Shown: one piece after another, positions 4,997 through 49,098 of the stretch
Layout: every line of letters begins with the position of its first letter
Position numbering within the stretch: the stretch's first letter is position 1
Source of the DNA: an uncultured Thermofilaceae archaeon
Lineage (GTDB): Archaea; Thermoproteota; Thermoprotei; Thermofilales; B69-G16
DNA length: 64,000 nucleotides
NCBI GenBank assembly: GCA_964501905.1
Contig: CAZCTW010000009.1
Location: forward strand, 11,342 to 75,341
Reading direction: 5' to 3'
The notes under the pieces: generated by a model
The model's input: the letters and a program-made list of their open reading frames with translations, nothing else
What the model was told of the DNA's origin: nothing
Database searches by the model: none
Made by a program: the position numbers and the translations under genes

Positions 4997-5508
4997 TTAC
5001 TACCCCCCTCTGTTGATCTAGTAGCATAAGACGAGAGAGGATAAAACCTTACCTGTTCCTCTTCCTCCCGCGCGACTAAGTGTCCCGGGCTTGTAACTCT
5101 TCTATCTCCTATCGCTATATGCCCGTGTACTATTAGTTGTCGGGCATGGTATATTGAAGATGCTAAGCCTTTCTTATACACTATGTACTGGAGTCTTCTT
5201 TGCAGGATATCTTCTATCGTCAAGTTAAGCACATCATCTAAAGTGCAATCCTCACTGGGGAGTATACCCTGTTTTACTAAGCGGTTTATAAGCTCTCTCT
5301 CTAGTTTAGCGCGCTTCTTAGGAGGTAGTGCGAGTAGAGTTCTTGCTCTGGCTCTTATTCGTCTTAGGTATGTTCTCGCTATCCATAATTCTCTTTTATT
5401 TCTAAGTCCGTATTTTCCAACGAGTTCAATCTCTTGAAGGAGACGCTCCTTTATCCAGGGGTGACCCGGTGTATCGTATTTCCGCCTACTTCTTTTAGGA
5501 TCGCCCAT
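4993..5508 (-). CDS. rps4: 30S ribosomal protein uS4
   Basis: 171 aa. [18 protein letters not shown]... with an S4 RNA-binding domain ([30 protein letters not shown]). Confidence 0.95.
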
Positions 5509-5518
5509 TCTATCACCC

Positions 5519-5968
5519 CTACCTCTTTCTCCTTTTTACTCCAACAGTCACTCCGGTTCTTCCCGTGGTTCTAGTTCTCTGTCCTCTCACTTTTAAGCCA
5601 AACATGTGCCTTATACCGCGCCAACACCTTATATTTTTGAGGAACTCTATATCGCTTTTTACGGTGAATACTAAGTCAGAGGCTATAAGGTGTAAGTTTT
5701 GTCCGGTTCTAGGATCTTTAGGTCTGTTTAAGAACCATGGAGGGAAGCCTAATTTATGGGGTTCTCTGAGTATAGCATCGAGCTCCTTTAGTTGTGCTTC
5801 GCTTAGGGAGCCTAGTTTTGCGTGCGGGTCTATTCCCATTTTCCTGCATATTGCGTATGCTATGTTTATGCCTATACCTTTTATCAGTCTGAGGGAGTAG
5901 GCTACGGCTTTATCTCCTGGTAGGTCTACGCCTGCGAGCCTCACTATCTGCTTAAATTCGTCACTCAT
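5519..5968 (-). CDS. rps13: 30S ribosomal protein uS13
   Basis: 149 aa. IVRLAGVDLPGDKAVAYSLRLIKGIG...RGIRHMFGLKVRGQRTRTTGR. Confidence 0.95.
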   Translation of the reverse strand: MSDEFKQIVRLAGVDLPGDKAVAYSLRLIKGIGINIAYAICRKMGIDPHAKLGSLSEAQLKELDAILREPHKLGFPPWFLNRPKDPRTGQNLHLIASDLVFTVKSDIEFLKNIRCWRGIRHMFGLKVRGQRTRTTGRTGVTVGVKRRKR

Positions 5969-6108
5969 TTAATAGCCCCTAGGGGTAGAGGAATCTATCC
6001 GATTCTTATAAAACTTTCGTGCCCATTAAGCGGGGTTGCCTACCTTATCCAAGGTTTTGAAACCCTATACTTACCGTGGAGCCCATGCGTATGCATAAAT
6101 AGTTCTTT

Positions 6109-6462
6109 GTGTTATACTATACGGCTATGGGCTCTGTAAAGATTAGAGCGATACTAGTAGGGAAGAATCTCATTAAGAACCCGTGGGGAGAAAGGGTTAT
6201 AAAGCTCGAATTTGTAGAGGAGAGGGAGCTGCCCAGCCCTGTTATAATTCAGTCTTCCGAAGGAGAACTAGCGAAGGAGATTATGCCAATAATTACTCAG
6301 ATTATGAAGTCTATGCCTATGTTGAGCCAGGGTAGAGCTAGCGTGCCTCGATTGACGCTTTACTTGACCGAAGAGGAGTGGGATAGACTGGTAGAGAAAC
6401 CCGAAATTGGGGAAGAAGTAGTTATCGAAATTAAGGGTAAAACCATCTCCATTAGTAAATAA
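6109..6462 (+). CDS. Hypothetical protein
   Basis: 117-aa ORF with ordinary composition and no recognisable motif. The real start may be the internal MGSVKIRAIL. Confidence 0.4.
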   Translation: MLYYTAMGSVKIRAILVGKNLIKNPWGERVIKLEFVEERELPSPVIIQSSEGELAKEIMPIITQIMKSMPMLSQGRASVPRLTLYLTEEEWDRLVEKPEIGEEVVIEIKGKTISISK

Positions 6463-16557: not shown

Positions 16558-16642
16558 GGGCCCGTCGTCTAGTGGCTAGGGTCTCTGGCTAAGACGCCAC
16601 CCTCACGAGGTGGAGGTCCGGGTTCGATTCCCGGCGGGCCCA
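16558..16642 (+). tRNA. tRNA-Val(CAC) with a ~13-nt insertion (probable non-canonical intron) in the D-loop
   Basis: Acceptor GGGCCCG/CGGGCCC, anticodon arm CCACC-CTCACGA-GGTGG, T-arm CCGGG-TTCGATT-CCCGG. D stem GTCT/AGAC encloses 21 nt (AGTGGCTAGGGTCTCTGGCTA) with TGGCTA duplicated. Confidence 0.85.
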
Positions 16643-29814: not shown

Positions 29815-29939
29815 AGCGGGGTGGGGAAGCCAGGTAATCCCGCGGGGCTCATAAACCTCTGTCGGACAAAAACGAAAAAAGAGCCCCGACAGAGAATTGA
29901 GAGACCCCGAGGTCCCCGGTTCAAATCCGGGCCCCGCTA
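29815..29939 (+). tRNA. Initiator tRNA-Met(CAT) with a ~50-nt anticodon-loop intron
   Basis: A1:U72 acceptor AGCGGGG/CCCCGCT, anticodon stem CGGGG/CCCCG with three G:C pairs, loop CTCATA|intron|A. The intron holds a 9-bp hairpin CTCTGTCGG/CCGACAGAG, and TGAG pairs with the anticodon region. T-arm CCCGG-TTCAAAT-CCGGG. T-rich run follows. Confidence 0.9.
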
Positions 29940-30074
29940 TAGCCACTATTTTTTTTCTTTTCTTTCGAAAAGGAAACGAAATTTTTCTTTAATTATCGGT
30001 AATGGGACTCTAAGAGTTTTTCAAAAGTTTATCGGGAGTCACCGCGGGATTTTAGGTAGGTGGGGGTGGTTTGT

Positions 30075-31094
30075 TTATTGTTTGGTCCATCGTCCGTTTA
30101 TTTTTTTGTATAGTTTTTTCCATTTTTCTGCTGCTGTTTTTGTGTCGTATTTTTGTAGTAGGGTTAGTGCGTCTTGGAGTTTTTGTTGTTTGCGTTTTAT
30201 TTCGAATCCTATTTGTTGGGTGTATTTTTTGATGTCGTTTTTTCGGTAGATTACTAGTTGGTATGTTTCTTTGACTTTTACTTTCATGTTTTTTATTATG
30301 ATTTCTTCGTTTTCTTTTCGTACTTTTCTCCAGTGGCAGTGTATGTTTTTTAGTTTCAATAAGTATTCTACGAATTTTAGGAATTCTATGGAGGAATTGC
30401 CTATAGTTATTGCAATGTAAAGTTTGCCTTTGCTCGGAGAAACGCACGGCCCTCCGTCTCCGTCGAATGCTCCTTTTAGGAATTCGTTGGGGTATATGTA
30501 TGCTATGATTTTCCAGAGGTTTATTTTGCAGATGTAGCGTATTGTTGTTCCGTTGTGGTAGACTACGTATCTTCCGTCTTTTGTTTTGGATATTTGGTAT
30601 TTTTTGCCTGTTATTTTTGATAGTTTTTGTGCGTATTTTTCTGCGTAGTCTCGGTCTTTTACTCTTAGTTTTGCTGTGGTGCTTCGGCAGGCGTCTGTGA
30701 GTGCTGTTCCTATTATGTAGCCTAGTTCTGGGGCTGTTTTTAGTGGTGTTGTTCCTGGTTTTGTTTTGCCGGTGATCCACCAGTATATGGTCATTGGTGG
30801 TATTTTGATGCCTAGTTTTTCTTGGAGTTTTTTGGCTATTTTTCTGCGTCCTAGTTTTTTCATGGTTAGGGCTAGTTTGTAGGCTTTGTTGTATAGTAGG
30901 GCTTTTTGTAGTGGTGTGGGTTTGTATGGTATTAGTTCGTTATGATAGATTTTCTCGATTTGGTCTTTGGGGATTTTAGAGCGGTAGATTTTTTGAATTA
31001 TTTTCACCGCGTCTTCTATTTTGTAGCCTGCGGTTTTGAGGAGGAGTACCGCGTCGAAGATTTCAATAGGAATTTTCCTACTCTCCATACTCAT
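30075..31094 (-). CDS. LAGLIDADG-type (double-motif) endonuclease-like protein with N-terminal HTH region
   Basis: 339 aa. Motif 1 LGYIIGTALTDA, motif 2 FLKGAFDGDGG. N-terminal GRRKIAKKLQEKLGIKIPPMTIYWW is HTH-like. Confidence 0.7.
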   Translation of the reverse strand: MSMESRKIPIEIFDAVLLLKTAGYKIEDAVKIIQKIYRSKIPKDQIEKIYHNELIPYKPTPLQKALLYNKAYKLALTMKKLGRRKIAKKLQEKLGIKIPPMTIYWWITGKTKPGTTPLKTAPELGYIIGTALTDACRSTTAKLRVKDRDYAEKYAQKLSKITGKKYQISKTKDGRYVVYHNGTTIRYICKINLWKIIAYIYPNEFLKGAFDGDGGPCVSPSKGKLYIAITIGNSSIEFLKFVEYLLKLKNIHCHWRKVRKENEEIIIKNMKVKVKETYQLVIYRKNDIKKYTQQIGFEIKRKQQKLQDALTLLQKYDTKTAAEKWKKLYKKINGRWTKQ

Positions 31095-31099
31095 CCCCC

Positions 31100-31460
31100 C
31101 TCGCTCTCCGTCTAACAGAGTAGCGGGGTCGTATGGAGAGTCGCTGCTAATCTCTGACGATTTTCAGCCTCCTCGTGTCATCAGAGGCTCGCTGTGGCAG
31201 GGCTCCGCGCCCGCTGGTATGCCGGCCTCCCCTCCGGAGCCCTTCGCGGAGGAGAGGTAGGGGCCGGGCTTTTTGCCCGCTTAAGGCATGGCCTACAAGC
31301 GGGCGTCCGCAAGGCATAGCCTACGCGGACCTGAACCCCCAACCCTTCTCCCTCAACATCGTGGAGGGTTGGGGGTAAAAAAGAGCCCGGCTTTCCCCTC
31401 TGTGATGCGGTGACCCCCTCATTGGCTCGGGGATCCTGCCCAAACCCCAAGGTTTGGGCA
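31100..31460. other. GC-rich, hairpin-dense non-coding block (candidate structured RNA or replication/packaging origin)
   Basis: No credible ORF, only skew-generated shadows. Contains a 10-bp stem CCCCCAACCC/GGGTTGGGGG (31336-75), twin hairpins at 31275-31330, stem GGGCTCCG/CGGAGCCC (31200-41), and a 9-bp hairpin GCCCAAACC-CCAA-GGTTTGGGC (31438-59) 3 nt past the ATPase stop. Confidence 0.4.
31275..31330. repeat. Two abutting hairpins with different stems but near-identical 14-nt loops AAGGCAT(G/A)GCCTAC
   Basis: GCCCGCTT-AAGGCATGGCCTAC-AAGCGGGC followed directly by GTCCGC-AAGGCATAGCCTAC-GCGGAC. Each loop can itself form AGGC/GCCT. Confidence 0.7.
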
Positions 31461-31461
31461 T

Positions 31462-33279
31462 TCATTGGTATATTTGGAGGAGTATGTGCGCTTTTTCTGT
31501 GAGTTTTCCTTTTTCGTTTATGTATCCGTGTTTTCTGAGGGTTTTTCTCTCTTGGAGGGTTGTTTGTCCTTTCTGGTATTTTCTGATTAGGTGTGCTATT
31601 TTCTCCCACTTGTCTACGCGTCTGTGTTTTCTCTGGGGCGGCGTCGGGGTGTATCTGGGTTTTACCTTTATGTGGGCTATTCTCCCTCTCTGGGATGTTA
31701 TGCATTCTCCTGTTTCGAGTTTTTCGATTTTCGCTGTTAGTTCTCTATGTCTGCTGGGGGATAGGGCTTTGGCGGCTATTTCCGCGTCTACTCCGGTGCA
31801 GTGGAAGACCGCTATTGTCTCGGCGTTGTTTATGATTGAGCTGTGGAGGGTGCTGGGGGTTTGGGTTGCGGCTATTATCTTTACTCCGTGCTTCCTCCCC
31901 TCGTCCATTAAACGCTCTAGGAAGGTTTTCGTTTTGAGGAATCTGGGAGCCAGCCTCTGCGCCTCGTCTAGGACCAGCACGGTTTCCATGCTTGGAGGAT
32001 CGTAGTACAGGTTTTGGAGGAGGAACCAGGTGAAGACTGTTTTCTCGTAGTCGGTTTTTAGGCTGGATAGGTCGATTGCATATATTCCCTTGTCCTCGGG
32101 CGGGGGTAGGTTTCTGTTGAAGCACCTACCCGTAAGCCTGGAGAGCCTCCTCTTGACGGCTGCGGCGGCGTTTCTCTCGTCTTCCCTCCTAATATCCATC
32201 GAGGACAGCGCTTCGTACAGGGTTAGGGGGGTTACGGGCAGTCCTAGCTTTTCCACTTGGAGGGCGGCTTTTCTAGCTACTTCATACTGGATTGGGCTGA
32301 ACTCGCTCCTCTGGGTGGTGTAGAAGAGTATCTCCTCTATGCTATCCCATCCGTGGTCGAAGCCTAGCCAGAAGGGGTTTACGTAAACGTCTACGCCGGG
32401 GATTAGCCTATAGCCTAGACCCGCGTATTCCCCGTATCAGTCCAAGATCAGCACTCTCTTCTCTCTGCCCAGCCCCTCCACCAGCCTGGCTATAAACGTG
32501 CTCTTGCCCGAGCCGCTCGCGCCAATCACTAACACGTGGGTCTCCACTTCTATACCGGTGATCCCATTCCTGGTGCAGCCTATTTCAACTCCTTTATCCT
32601 CGTGGTAGGTGGAGCCTCTGACCATAGCGCTGGCCGTCTCCCACACGTACTCGCAGGCCTTTAGCTTCGTCAACTCTTTCGCCCGCCTGCCCCCTAGGGG
32701 GTAGAGCCCGGTCTTTAACAAAACCTTCTTCCCCGTCTTCATCCCCTCTATTACGAGCACGGCGGCTCCCGGGTTTCCATAGGTTTTAATCCTAGAGCCC
32801 ACCTTCAGTTTAGGCAGCTCGGCTAGAGGCTTGAGCTTAAAGCCCATCTGCTCTAGCGCCCAGCGAGGGCTGTAGCCGTCATCTAGGATGAGGTAATGTT
32901 TCTCGAAGGCTATTAGACACCTGTTATCCAGGGTCCTTACGAAGTATAGCCTACACTTCTCGGGCACGTTAAGCTTTAACTCGAAATCCCCGGGAACCCC
33001 CGTTACGGCGTAGATTTCCAGCCGGCATCCCCACAGTCCGTGTGCTCCTCTAAAATACTCCCCGTTCCACCTGTAGCTCAGGTATAAGAGTTTGAGGATC
33101 TTGGGGACTAGGATTGACGAGAGTATGGAGATGATGACTGGCAGGAAGCTAAATCTTATCCACGGCAGGGCTATTATCGAGCCTATGTAGATTATCCAGG
33201 GCGGCATCCTGGTTTTTAAGCCGTTGAGTATTTGCGTTGTTATCTCCTTCAAAGCCTCGAGGGGCATATCCTCAGCCAT
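31462..33279 (-). pseudogene. Membrane-anchored HerA/VirB4-like (DUF87-type) ATPase interrupted by one in-frame TGA
   Basis: ORFs 32437-33279 and 31462-32256 are in the same frame, and 32257-32436 is open. The single stop at 32437-32439 sits in VLILD*YGEY (hhhhDxxGEY motif). Two N-terminal TM helices, Walker A GASGSGKST, Walker B VLVLDEAQ. Confidence 0.75.
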
Positions 33280-40012: not shown

Positions 40013-40108
40013 TGGGCCCGGCGGGATTCGAACCCGCGACCCCCCGGTTGTGCCCTCGGCTACGAGCCGAAATGAGCCGGGTGCTCTACCTAGCTGAGCT
40101 ACGGGCCC
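40013..40108 (-). tRNA. tRNA(CAT) (elongator Met or Ile2) with a ~22-nt anticodon-loop intron
   Basis: Acceptor GGGCCCG/CGGGCCC, D-arm GCTC-AGCTAGGTA-GAGC, anticodon stem CCCGG/CCGGG enclosing CTCAT-[TTCGGCTCGTAGCCGAGGGCAC]-AA, T-arm GCGGG-TTCGAAT-CCCGC. Exact junctions are ambiguous. Confidence 0.85.
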
Positions 40109-49005: not shown

Positions 49006-49098
49006 CGGGCCCGCCGGGATTCGAACCCGGGACCACCGGCTGTCTACAATTTGGTAATTACCGCAGGCCGGCACTCTATCCAGCTGAGCTACGGGCCC
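49006..49098 (-). tRNA. tRNA-Arg(GCG) with a 19-nt canonical (37/38) intron
   Basis: Acceptor GGGCCCG/CGGGCCC with G73. Anticodon stem CCGGC/GCCGG enclosing CTGCGG[TAATTACCAAATTGTAGAC]A. T-arm CCGGG-TTCGAAT-CCCGG. Confidence 0.9.

Follow-up and report, generated by a model that had tools for sequence, protein, structure and literature searches.

Group I introns and IStrons carrying LAGLIDADG or TnpB genes, together with archaeal rRNA introns of the I-DmoI type, are the described systems whose layout comes closest to the locus reported here. LAGLIDADG_3 genes have been found in archaeal group I introns (PMC6125680), and introns bearing TnpB have also been described (PMC10690162). Our locus lies in 64,000 nucleotides of DNA, hereafter the window, taken from contig CAZCTW010000009.1 of an uncultured Thermofilaceae archaeon. 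Two adjacent hairpins, which we call Ha and Hb, stand there between the gene of a HerA/VirB4/Ced-like membrane ATPase and that of a LAGLIDADG_3 endonuclease, and a preliminary description had related them to rolling-circle origins and to protein-binding RNA hairpins. We read them, on sequence comparison and with a probability of about 60%, as tandem-duplicated stem-loops on a multi-helix junction of a structured RNA encoded by the minus strand (31467 to 31162, plus 30045 to 30034), and we rate the whole as a case of selfish nucleases having colonised a structured RNA gene.

A structured RNA conserved in four lineages

Homologues of the locus were reached in two ways, by following relatives of the neighbouring ATPase and by scanning metagenome contigs with the DNA pattern of the RNA core. 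The ATPase route led to loci L140 and L141 (87% DNA identity) and to L142, where the ATPase is 42% identical at the protein level, and the metagenome scan added a fourth lineage, L143 and L145, as well as a copy of L141. Compared with L141, the window is 92.3% identical over the RNA region and 89.6% and 81.6% identical over the two parts of the ATPase gene, in which the substitutions are biased to third codon positions. The RNA region of L142 is about 73% identical to that of the window, includes invariant blocks of 20-30 nt, and exceeds the flanking ATPase gene in conservation. An nhmmer profile built from the four lineages matched the window once, from 31467 to 31143 on the minus strand, and gave no further copy in 1.1 Mb of other fetched loci. 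In viral contigs, neither the core pattern nor two single core blocks gave more than chance matches inside GC-rich phage genes, and the LAGLIDADG protein profile returned no relatives there. Additionally, when LAGLIDADG relatives (P0002, P0003, P0004, P0024 and P0025) and remote ATPase relatives (P0013 and P0014) were inspected with their flanks, none was accompanied by the structured RNA.

The 381-nt region around the hairpins folds far better than shuffled sequences on either strand (z = -6.5). Over the helices listed in Table 1, the four lineages present 238 Watson-Crick pairs, 5 G·U pairs and 1 mismatch, and since each of the G·U pairs would become an A·C mismatch if read on the plus strand, the minus strand is probably the functional one. 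RNAalifold recorded changes on both sides in 12 of 65 pairs, and pairing holds in 97% of the cells of the 3′ core, compared with 45-64% when the partners are slid. In these alignments H1, H3, H4, H6 and H8 keep their pairing through compensatory or wobble changes, and they do so on the minus strand only.

The individual helices illustrate this. Three pairs of H1 are changed on both sides in L142 (GCCUACAAC/GUUGUAGGC). H4 covaries from GCCGGGC/GCCCGGC in the window to GCUGGGC/GCCCAGC in L142 and GGUUGAGCC/GGCCCAACC in L143; it closes a junction domain that holds the invariant U6 run, H5 and a variable segment, which in the window and L141 consists of the twin hairpins. G·U pairs occur at differing positions of H6 in the window, L141 and L142, and a U·G pair of H8 in the window is C-G in L141, with GCCCCC/GGGGGC in L142. 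A pseudoknot (GGGCUCC/GGAGCCC) between H6 and H7 is possible from the sequence, and the segments concerned show no variation. H2 (CCCCGA..CAAUGAGGGG) is invariant in all four lineages, has the sequence arrangement of a K-loop (CCCC-GA-N6-GA-GGGG), and is weakly similar to the Pyrobaculum H/ACA-like small RNA PyrR209 in Rfam (14 bits, E = 5).

With Rfam 15 at gathering thresholds, tRNAs were the only matches in the window, and when the threshold was relaxed to E values up to 10 for the window, L142 and L143, the best scores in the region were 11-21 bits and matched no family. A literature search also found no description of such an RNA. These searches and the alignments show an uncatalogued structured RNA conserved in four metagenomic lineages. 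In L142 and L143, a TATA box (TTATAA, TTTATAA) lies about 22 nt 5′ of the conserved start GAUGAAC and a T-run follows the 3′ end of the RNA, and we read both as signs of an independent transcript. The host genome has about 40% GC, and its tRNAs are GC-rich and intron-bearing; the tRNA introns and the archaeal neighbours (RadA in the window; PCNA, PriL and TFS in a related locus) point to a hyperthermophilic host within the Thermoproteota.

Table 1. Features of the RNA locus and its neighbours in the window; RNA elements are written as transcribed from the minus strand.
Feature	Position	Strand	Description
RNA main body	31162-31467	-	306 nt, 63% GC vs 46% in flanks; from nhmmer profile and alignments
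H1, 5′ hairpin	31438-31459	-	GCCCAAACC-UUGG-GGUUUGGGC; nine pairs in four of four lineages
H2	31415-31432	-	CCCC-GA-GCCAAU-GA-GGGG; stem-GA-loop-GA-stem, candidate K-loop and L7Ae site
H3, 5′ strand	31407-31418	-	GGGGGUCACCGC; complementary to 30045-30034
H4, 5′ strands	31385-31399	-	AGGG-GAAA-GCCGGGC; pairs with 31269-31259
U6 run and long hairpin H5	31335-31382	-	U6 invariant; apical CCUCCACGAU invariant; register of H5 uncertain
Ha	31305-31330	-	GUCCGC / GU / AGGC-UAU-GCCU / U / GCGGAC; 5′-most of the pair in the predicted transcript; sequence and folds
Hb	31275-31304	-	GCCCGCUU / GU / AGGC-CAU-GCCU / U / AAGCGGGC; tandem paralogue of Ha; sequence and folds
H4, 3′ strands	31259-31269	-	GCCCGGC-CCCU
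H6	31226-31257	-	CCUCUCCUCCG / loop CGAAGGGCUC / CGGAGGGGAGG; eleven pairs, loop invariant
H7	31200-31212	-	GGGC-GCGGA-GCCC; invariant
H8	31167-31188	-	GCCUCU-GAUGACACGA-GGAGGC
LAGLIDADG_3 gene	30075-31094	-	339 amino acids; Pfam E = 3.8e-9; between H8 and the H3 3′ strand; cassette roughly 31161-30046
H3, 3′ strand	30034-30045	-	GCGGUGACUCCC; 1.36 kb downstream, beyond the LAGLIDADG gene
HerA/VirB4/Ced-like membrane ATPase gene	31462-33279	-	upstream of the RNA; frameshift at about 32437
Initiator-type tRNA(CAU) gene	29815-29939	+	A1-U72 pair, intron of about 52 nt; Rfam tRNA 48.7 bits

The twin hairpins as a duplicated arm of the RNA

The sequence of the hairpins is as first reported. On the plus strand, 31275-31304 reads GCCCGCTT-AAGGCATGGCCTAC-AAGCGGGC and is directly adjoined, with no spacer, by 31305-31330, GTCCGC-AAGGCATAGCCTAC-GCGGAC; both stems are perfectly complementary, and the two 14-mers that they enclose differ at one base. 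The preliminary description had gone further and argued from unrelated stems that carry the same 14-nt loop, and here we differ from it. GCCCGC and GTCCGC differ at one position, for which their partner strands, GCGGGC and GCGGAC, compensate. The supposed loop contains AGGC and GCCT, which are complementary and form a 4-bp helix with a 3-nt loop in all folds. The stems of Ha and Hb being paralogous, the argument from different stems and a common loop loses its ground, and such a pattern can arise from simple tandem duplication.

The hairpin at 31275-31304 has two extra pairs (TT/AA) relative to the one at 31305-31330. Aligned as units, Ha and Hb have 23 of 26 positions in common, with two 2-nt indels and no spacer, so that the adjacent units can be aligned over their full length, as expected of a tandem duplication. 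In the transcript, the step from Ha to Hb would consist of one compensatory change from U-A to C-G and a 2-bp extension. Judged by this alignment, Ha and Hb go back to a tandem duplication that has acquired one compensatory pair; they did not start as separate stems and converge on one loop. Beneath each 4-bp AGGC/GCCU apical helix, the folds place a small asymmetric internal loop. The exact 14-mer occurs at only these two places within 64 kb, and when up to two mismatches are allowed, 4 matches are found against 0.61 expected, a number attained by 0 of 100 shuffles. No dispersed repeat of the repetitive extragenic palindrome (REP) or miniature inverted-repeat transposable element (MITE) type was seen in the window, where the motif is confined to one locus.

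Comparison with the other lineages defines how far the hairpins are conserved. L141 keeps Ha with the loss of its outermost pair and has Hb stems identical to those of the window, the tops of both hairpins being GUAGGCUAUGCCUU there. At the aligned position L142 and L143 have no twin hairpins; they present a single 12-bp hairpin with a short extension, which is GCUCUUCAAGCC/GGCUUGAAGAGC in L142 and differs by a compensatory pair in L143. Because L142 and L143 carry this different single hairpin, the alignment identifies Ha and Hb as a lineage-specific, variable peripheral arm of the conserved RNA, not as a conserved motif presented in loops. The compensatory pair between the copies and the retention of both in L141 indicate some selection for pairing in the hairpins. 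A role as protein-binding RNA hairpins is a live possibility.

A nuclease gene between the strands of the closing helix

Helix H3 consists of 11 Watson-Crick pairs and one G·U pair. Its 5′ strand follows immediately past H2 and its 3′ strand lies 29 nt past the LAGLIDADG stop codon, and the pair of 12-mers is unique within 64 kb, with 0.09 expected. In L141 the 5′ strand is the same as in the window, and GCGGUGACCCCC is found after that locus's own TnpB cassette. H3 is CCCUGCC/GGCGGGG in L142 (7 bp with one G·U) and AACCCCGCC/GGCGGGGUU in L143 (9 bp), and in both loci it closes 13-14 nt past H8, the RNA being contiguous and free of any insert. Each of the three lineage groups thus keeps H3 with a complementary sequence pair of its own. 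It also belongs to the minimum-energy fold of the window and L141 RNAs after in silico deletion of the cassette, and to that of L143 natively. The uninterrupted window allele, as reconstructed, would read ...GGAGGCTGAAAATCCCGCGGTGAC...

The same alignments place the LAGLIDADG gene of this genome within the RNA gene, downstream of H8 and ahead of the 3′ strand of H3. Homology between the window and L141 ends just past H8 (31164), recurs around the H3 3′ strand and resumes at the 3′ end of the tRNA gene. In L141 the same linker is occupied by an unrelated TnpB-family gene of 261-283 amino acids; the family assignment comes from a Cas12f1-like TNB domain (guided_TnpB), and the gene was located in the linker of the RNA gene at 5305-6371 of L141 and 3854-4705 of L146. 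In L142 and L143 a LAGLIDADG gene lies past the complete RNA, after the T-run, the L143 copy being 45% identical to that of the window. According to the profile of the LAGLIDADG protein, its nearest solved relatives are, weakly, the archaeal rRNA-intron endonucleases I-Tsp061I and I-DmoI, and an N-terminal extension of about 120 amino acids looks, by eye, like a helix-turn-helix (HTH). A search for bulge-helix-bulge motifs of the canonical form between 31200-31120 and 30110-30000 gave 0 motifs, with 0.2 expected from shuffles.

Two independent metagenome contigs of 1.47 kb, L003 and L004, correspond to the window from 31483 or 31480 to 30008, that is, to the RNA, the cassette and the H3 3′ strand with margins of 13-26 nt. 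Read as assembly behaviour, their limits suggest that in those samples the unit exists in more than one flanking context, through homing or co-conversion.

Proposed function and its weak points

We believe that the identical apical modules of Ha and Hb, each with an internal loop, a 4-bp AGGC/GCCU helix and a YAU triloop, would most likely serve as rigid, heat-stable docking arms. A single partner may be docked by both arms, whether this is a protein or an RNA tertiary contact, with the number of docking sites doubled by the duplication. The whole RNA could be a stable ribonucleoprotein scaffold in which H2, by its sequence pattern and 14-bit similarity, would act as an L7Ae K-loop. Between H8 and the ATG, inspection by eye revealed nothing A/T-rich that resembled a promoter; the RNA of this lineage may be co-transcribed with the endonuclease mRNA as one transcript, in which H3 would clamp the endonuclease open reading frame (ORF) as a loop.

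Several points weigh against this proposal. The RNA is known here by comparing sequences and its transcript is predicted; the window copy itself has no clear promoter, and an invariant U6 run in an archaeal transcript could terminate transcription. The comparison set comprises four lineages, in effect three independent ones. Of 500 shuffles, 41 attained the observed covariation score, and the 3′ core hardly varies, which makes this control weak there. G·T wobble is tolerated in single-stranded DNA too, and strand asymmetry alone would not exclude a form of the element that acts as single-stranded DNA. One G run is claimed both by H2 and by the four outer pairs of H3, and the K-loop is a candidate assignment drawn from a sequence pattern and a 14-bit Rfam match. 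Finally, the docking partner of Ha and Hb is hypothetical.

A bolder version, which we hold to be doubtful, would make the locus a new mobile RNA-centred element of hyperthermophilic archaea. The RNA would be a ribozyme, an intron-like core or a nuclease cofactor, closed by H3 around the LAGLIDADG or TnpB gene; the 1.47-kb unit would be moved or co-converted as a whole, and Ha and Hb would be bound by the LAGLIDADG protein in the manner of a maturase.

Alternative explanations

The main alternative to a scaffold RNA is a mobile RNA that resembles an intron or a ribozyme, of the group I intron or IStron type. The structured RNA would be its catalytic or recognition core, the nuclease ORF would be looped out between this core and a distal closing strand, and Ha and Hb would be peripheral stabilisers or sites for the encoded protein. 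The ORF does sit inside the closing helix H3, both types of nuclease found in the slot, LAGLIDADG and TnpB, are those carried by group I introns and IStrons, and archaeal rRNA-intron endonucleases are the closest relatives of the LAGLIDADG domain. L003 and L004 span exactly the RNA, the ORF and the H3 3′ strand, as if present in multiple flanking contexts, and the L143 module is found in a different gene neighbourhood (TFS ... S7). However, no group I or group II intron model of Rfam matched the window, L142 or L143 at E values up to 10; the Intron_gpI model of Rfam is known to miss divergent group I subgroups. A P3/P7 pseudoknot could not be mapped by eye, no interrupted host gene or exons are evident, the cassette junctions have no canonical bulge-helix-bulge, and the endonuclease gene of L142 and L143 is found past the T-run, beyond the limits of the RNA. 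We consider an intron-like RNA unlikely. Duplex DNA sites, the RNAs of RNase P or the signal recognition particle (SRP), and terminators are lesser alternatives.

If the element worked as double-stranded DNA, its palindromes would be protein-binding sites in an origin, an attachment site or the operator of an integrated element. The region does contain perfect DNA palindromes, for example CTCCGGAG, and its neighbours are of a mobile-DNA type, including the HerA/VirB4-like ATPase, the LAGLIDADG protein with its extension, HTH-like by eye, and a winged-helix protein; a 12-bp inverted repeat surrounds 1.36 kb of DNA. Compensatory changes in stems and G·U pairs on one strand, on the other hand, are unexpected for duplex sites, and the window contains the element once. 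In L142 and L143 the counterpart of the 12-bp repeat has another sequence, with halves about 300-340 nt apart, and because it is closer and different there, it is better taken for an RNA helix than for transposon ends. This makes a duplex DNA element improbable.

A very divergent universal RNA that Rfam missed, either RNase P RNA or SRP RNA, would be about the right size, would account for the K-loop-like motif, and could explain a weak RNaseP-T match (11.9 bits). The segment GAGGGGAAAGCCGGGCUC also resembles GAGGAAAGUCCGGGCUC, the CR-I element of E. coli M1 RNA. In RNase P, CR-I and CR-V form P4, a long-range pseudoknot that reaches to the far 3′ end, whereas GCCGGGC of the CR-I-like segment pairs with a nearby, nested and covarying partner. 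RNase P was rejected on this topology, the CR-I-like segment being nested and a P4 pseudoknot missing; a terminal P1 helix is absent as well. Neither RNA was matched at E values up to 10 in the contiguous copies of L142 and L143, and where the neighbourhood is different, the RNA is still accompanied by the same ATPase remnant and endonuclease gene. We hold this alternative to be very improbable. Readings as SRP RNA, hammerhead, hepatitis delta virus (HDV)-like, C/D-box or H/ACA RNA were dropped for their topology, for want of conserved boxes or for want of an Rfam match.

The rolling-circle model of the preliminary description, in which the hairpins extrude in single-stranded DNA and offer a nick site (within AAGGCATRGCCTAC) to a Rep protein, has scarcely any probability left. 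Adjacent perfect hairpins with near-identical tops would suit it, and a pairing asymmetry that favours one strand could be explained by single-stranded DNA too. Scans of the neighbouring proteins against Pfam, PHROGs and NCBIfam, however, gave LAGLIDADG, a HerA/VirB4/Ced-like ATPase, a winged-helix protein, RadA and TnpB, and no HUH or Rep protein. Instead of open loops the tops form base pairs, L142 and L143 as distant homologues of this element lack the hairpins, and the hairpins sit within a larger conserved fold that has a TATA box and a T-run in relatives, all of which leaves a Rep nick site unsupported. A scan of viral contigs for the twin motif returned 12 loci, none with the full 14-mer, and no fetched locus contained a twin motif; when a genome collection was scanned with a loose pattern, AGGCATRGCCT twice, unrelated bacterial repeats were among the matches listed. 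As for the skew that had been attributed to single-stranded DNA, the strongest AT skew of the profile (-0.51, 30001-31000) falls inside the lysine-rich LAGLIDADG gene of the minus strand, and this bin is ordinary coding-strand composition.

Least probable of all are terminator or attenuator hairpins between the ATPase and endonuclease genes, to which the intergenic place, the GC-rich stems and nearby T or A runs would be suited, but A5 and not a T-run follows the twin hairpins on the transcribed strand, the hairpins are enclosed by the covarying H4, and the conserved fold is about 10 times the size of a terminator.

Neighbouring genes and other observations

The ATPase gene upstream of the RNA is split. 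Around its frameshift (32430-32445, minus strand) the translation runs ...RVLILD to a stop and continues as YGEYAGLGY... in another frame. The L140 ATPase gene is broken at another place and its substitutions are still biased to third codon positions, and an intact homologue of 623 amino acids (P0012) precedes the RNA in L142. The split gene points to recent decay or a sequencing error. RadA is likewise represented by two ORFs (99 and 207 amino acids) in L140 at 5079-6002, and the window copy is intact, with 320 amino acids. In L143 and L145, the module stands amid genes for PriL, PCNA and TFS upstream and ribosomal protein S7 downstream, and about 137 nt located 5′ of the RNA share homology with the L142 ATPase gene at its 3′ end.

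Repeats were noted around the unit. On the minus strand of the window, an imperfect direct repeat is formed by 31469-31483 (ACUCCUCCAAAUAUACC) and 30020-30040 (GACUCCCGAUAAAC), and the counterpart in L141 of the repeat on the side of the H3 3′ strand is GACCCCCAAUAUACCC, at about 6385-6410. In L143, 8 nt at the start of the RNA, CGATGAAC, are repeated exactly after the LAGLIDADG gene.

The tRNA(CAU) gene downstream of the cassette was missed by ARAGORN and by the Rfam scan of the whole window at gathering thresholds, and was detected by a focused scan. A direct repeat of its 3′ end, which would mark an integrated element, was sought and none was found. Three other tRNA genes of the window carry introns (16558-16642, 40013-40108 and 49006-49098), one of 16 nt in the D-arm region and two beside the anticodon (26 and 22 nt); ARAGORN reported two of these genes, in truncated form. 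Between 29133 and 29780 the minus strand is strongly G+T-rich, with a GC skew of -0.5 on the plus strand, and encodes an ORF of 132 amino acids that has no family match and is also present in L146.

Two observations concern more distant LAGLIDADG loci. At 7085-7185 of L007, an intron-bearing tRNA gene on the opposite strand adjoins the LAGLIDADG gene of P0003 (40% identical), and no structured RNA is found there. Remote loci L152 (780-900) and L153 (1-110) have a common upstream stretch of about 100 nt with a GGGTCTGA...TCAGACCC hairpin, the sequence of which is unrelated to the RNA studied here.

Significance and comparison with known systems

If the RNA is real and functional, uncultured hyperthermophilic archaea would have a family of large structured RNA that is absent from the catalogues. 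The arrangement is unusual in that the linker of one RNA gene contains a homing-endonuclease gene in the window, a TnpB gene in the sister lineage and nothing in two further lineages. The locus could then be a natural system for asking in what way structured RNA genes other than those of rRNA and tRNA are colonised by selfish nucleases, and whether a long-range helix of the H3 type can clamp a tolerated ORF loop without splicing.

Among known systems, the hairpins of rolling-circle double-strand origins also place a hairpin with a conserved top beside mobile-element genes. They differ from the present case, in which no Rep gene was found among the neighbours, the top forms base pairs, and the hairpin is part of a larger fold and is not conserved in distant homologues. 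HEARO and the omega RNA of IscB are closer in one respect, a structured RNA of about 300 nt lying directly upstream of a mobile nuclease gene and co-oriented with it. The nuclease at our locus is of another class, and LAGLIDADG enzymes recognise DNA via protein; in addition, Rfam gives no HEARO match, a T-run of its own belongs to the RNA in two lineages, and the RNA persists where the LAGLIDADG gene is gone. With the L7Ae-binding GC-rich RNAs of AT-rich hyperthermophiles (C/D, H/ACA and RNase P), the locus has in common a GC island (63% vs 46%) and the pattern of H2. In contrast to them, it lacks C/D or ACA boxes at conserved positions, is far larger than guide small RNAs and does not have the topology of RNase P.

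Unlike group I introns and IStrons, the locus presents no Rfam intron match, no recognisable P3/P7 and no identifiable exons or splice sites, and the ORF lies outside the RNA in two lineages. What it has in common with them is a compact RNA of a few hundred nucleotides with a selfish nuclease ORF looped out before the distal closing strand. From the bulge-helix-bulge introns of archaeal rRNA (I-DmoI, I-Tsp061I) it is set apart by the lack of a canonical bulge-helix-bulge, by a host RNA that is neither rRNA nor tRNA, and by the extra N-terminal extension of the protein, about 120 amino acids long. As in those introns, a LAGLIDADG gene of the same family is lodged in a GC-rich structured RNA gene of what is probably a hyperthermophile.

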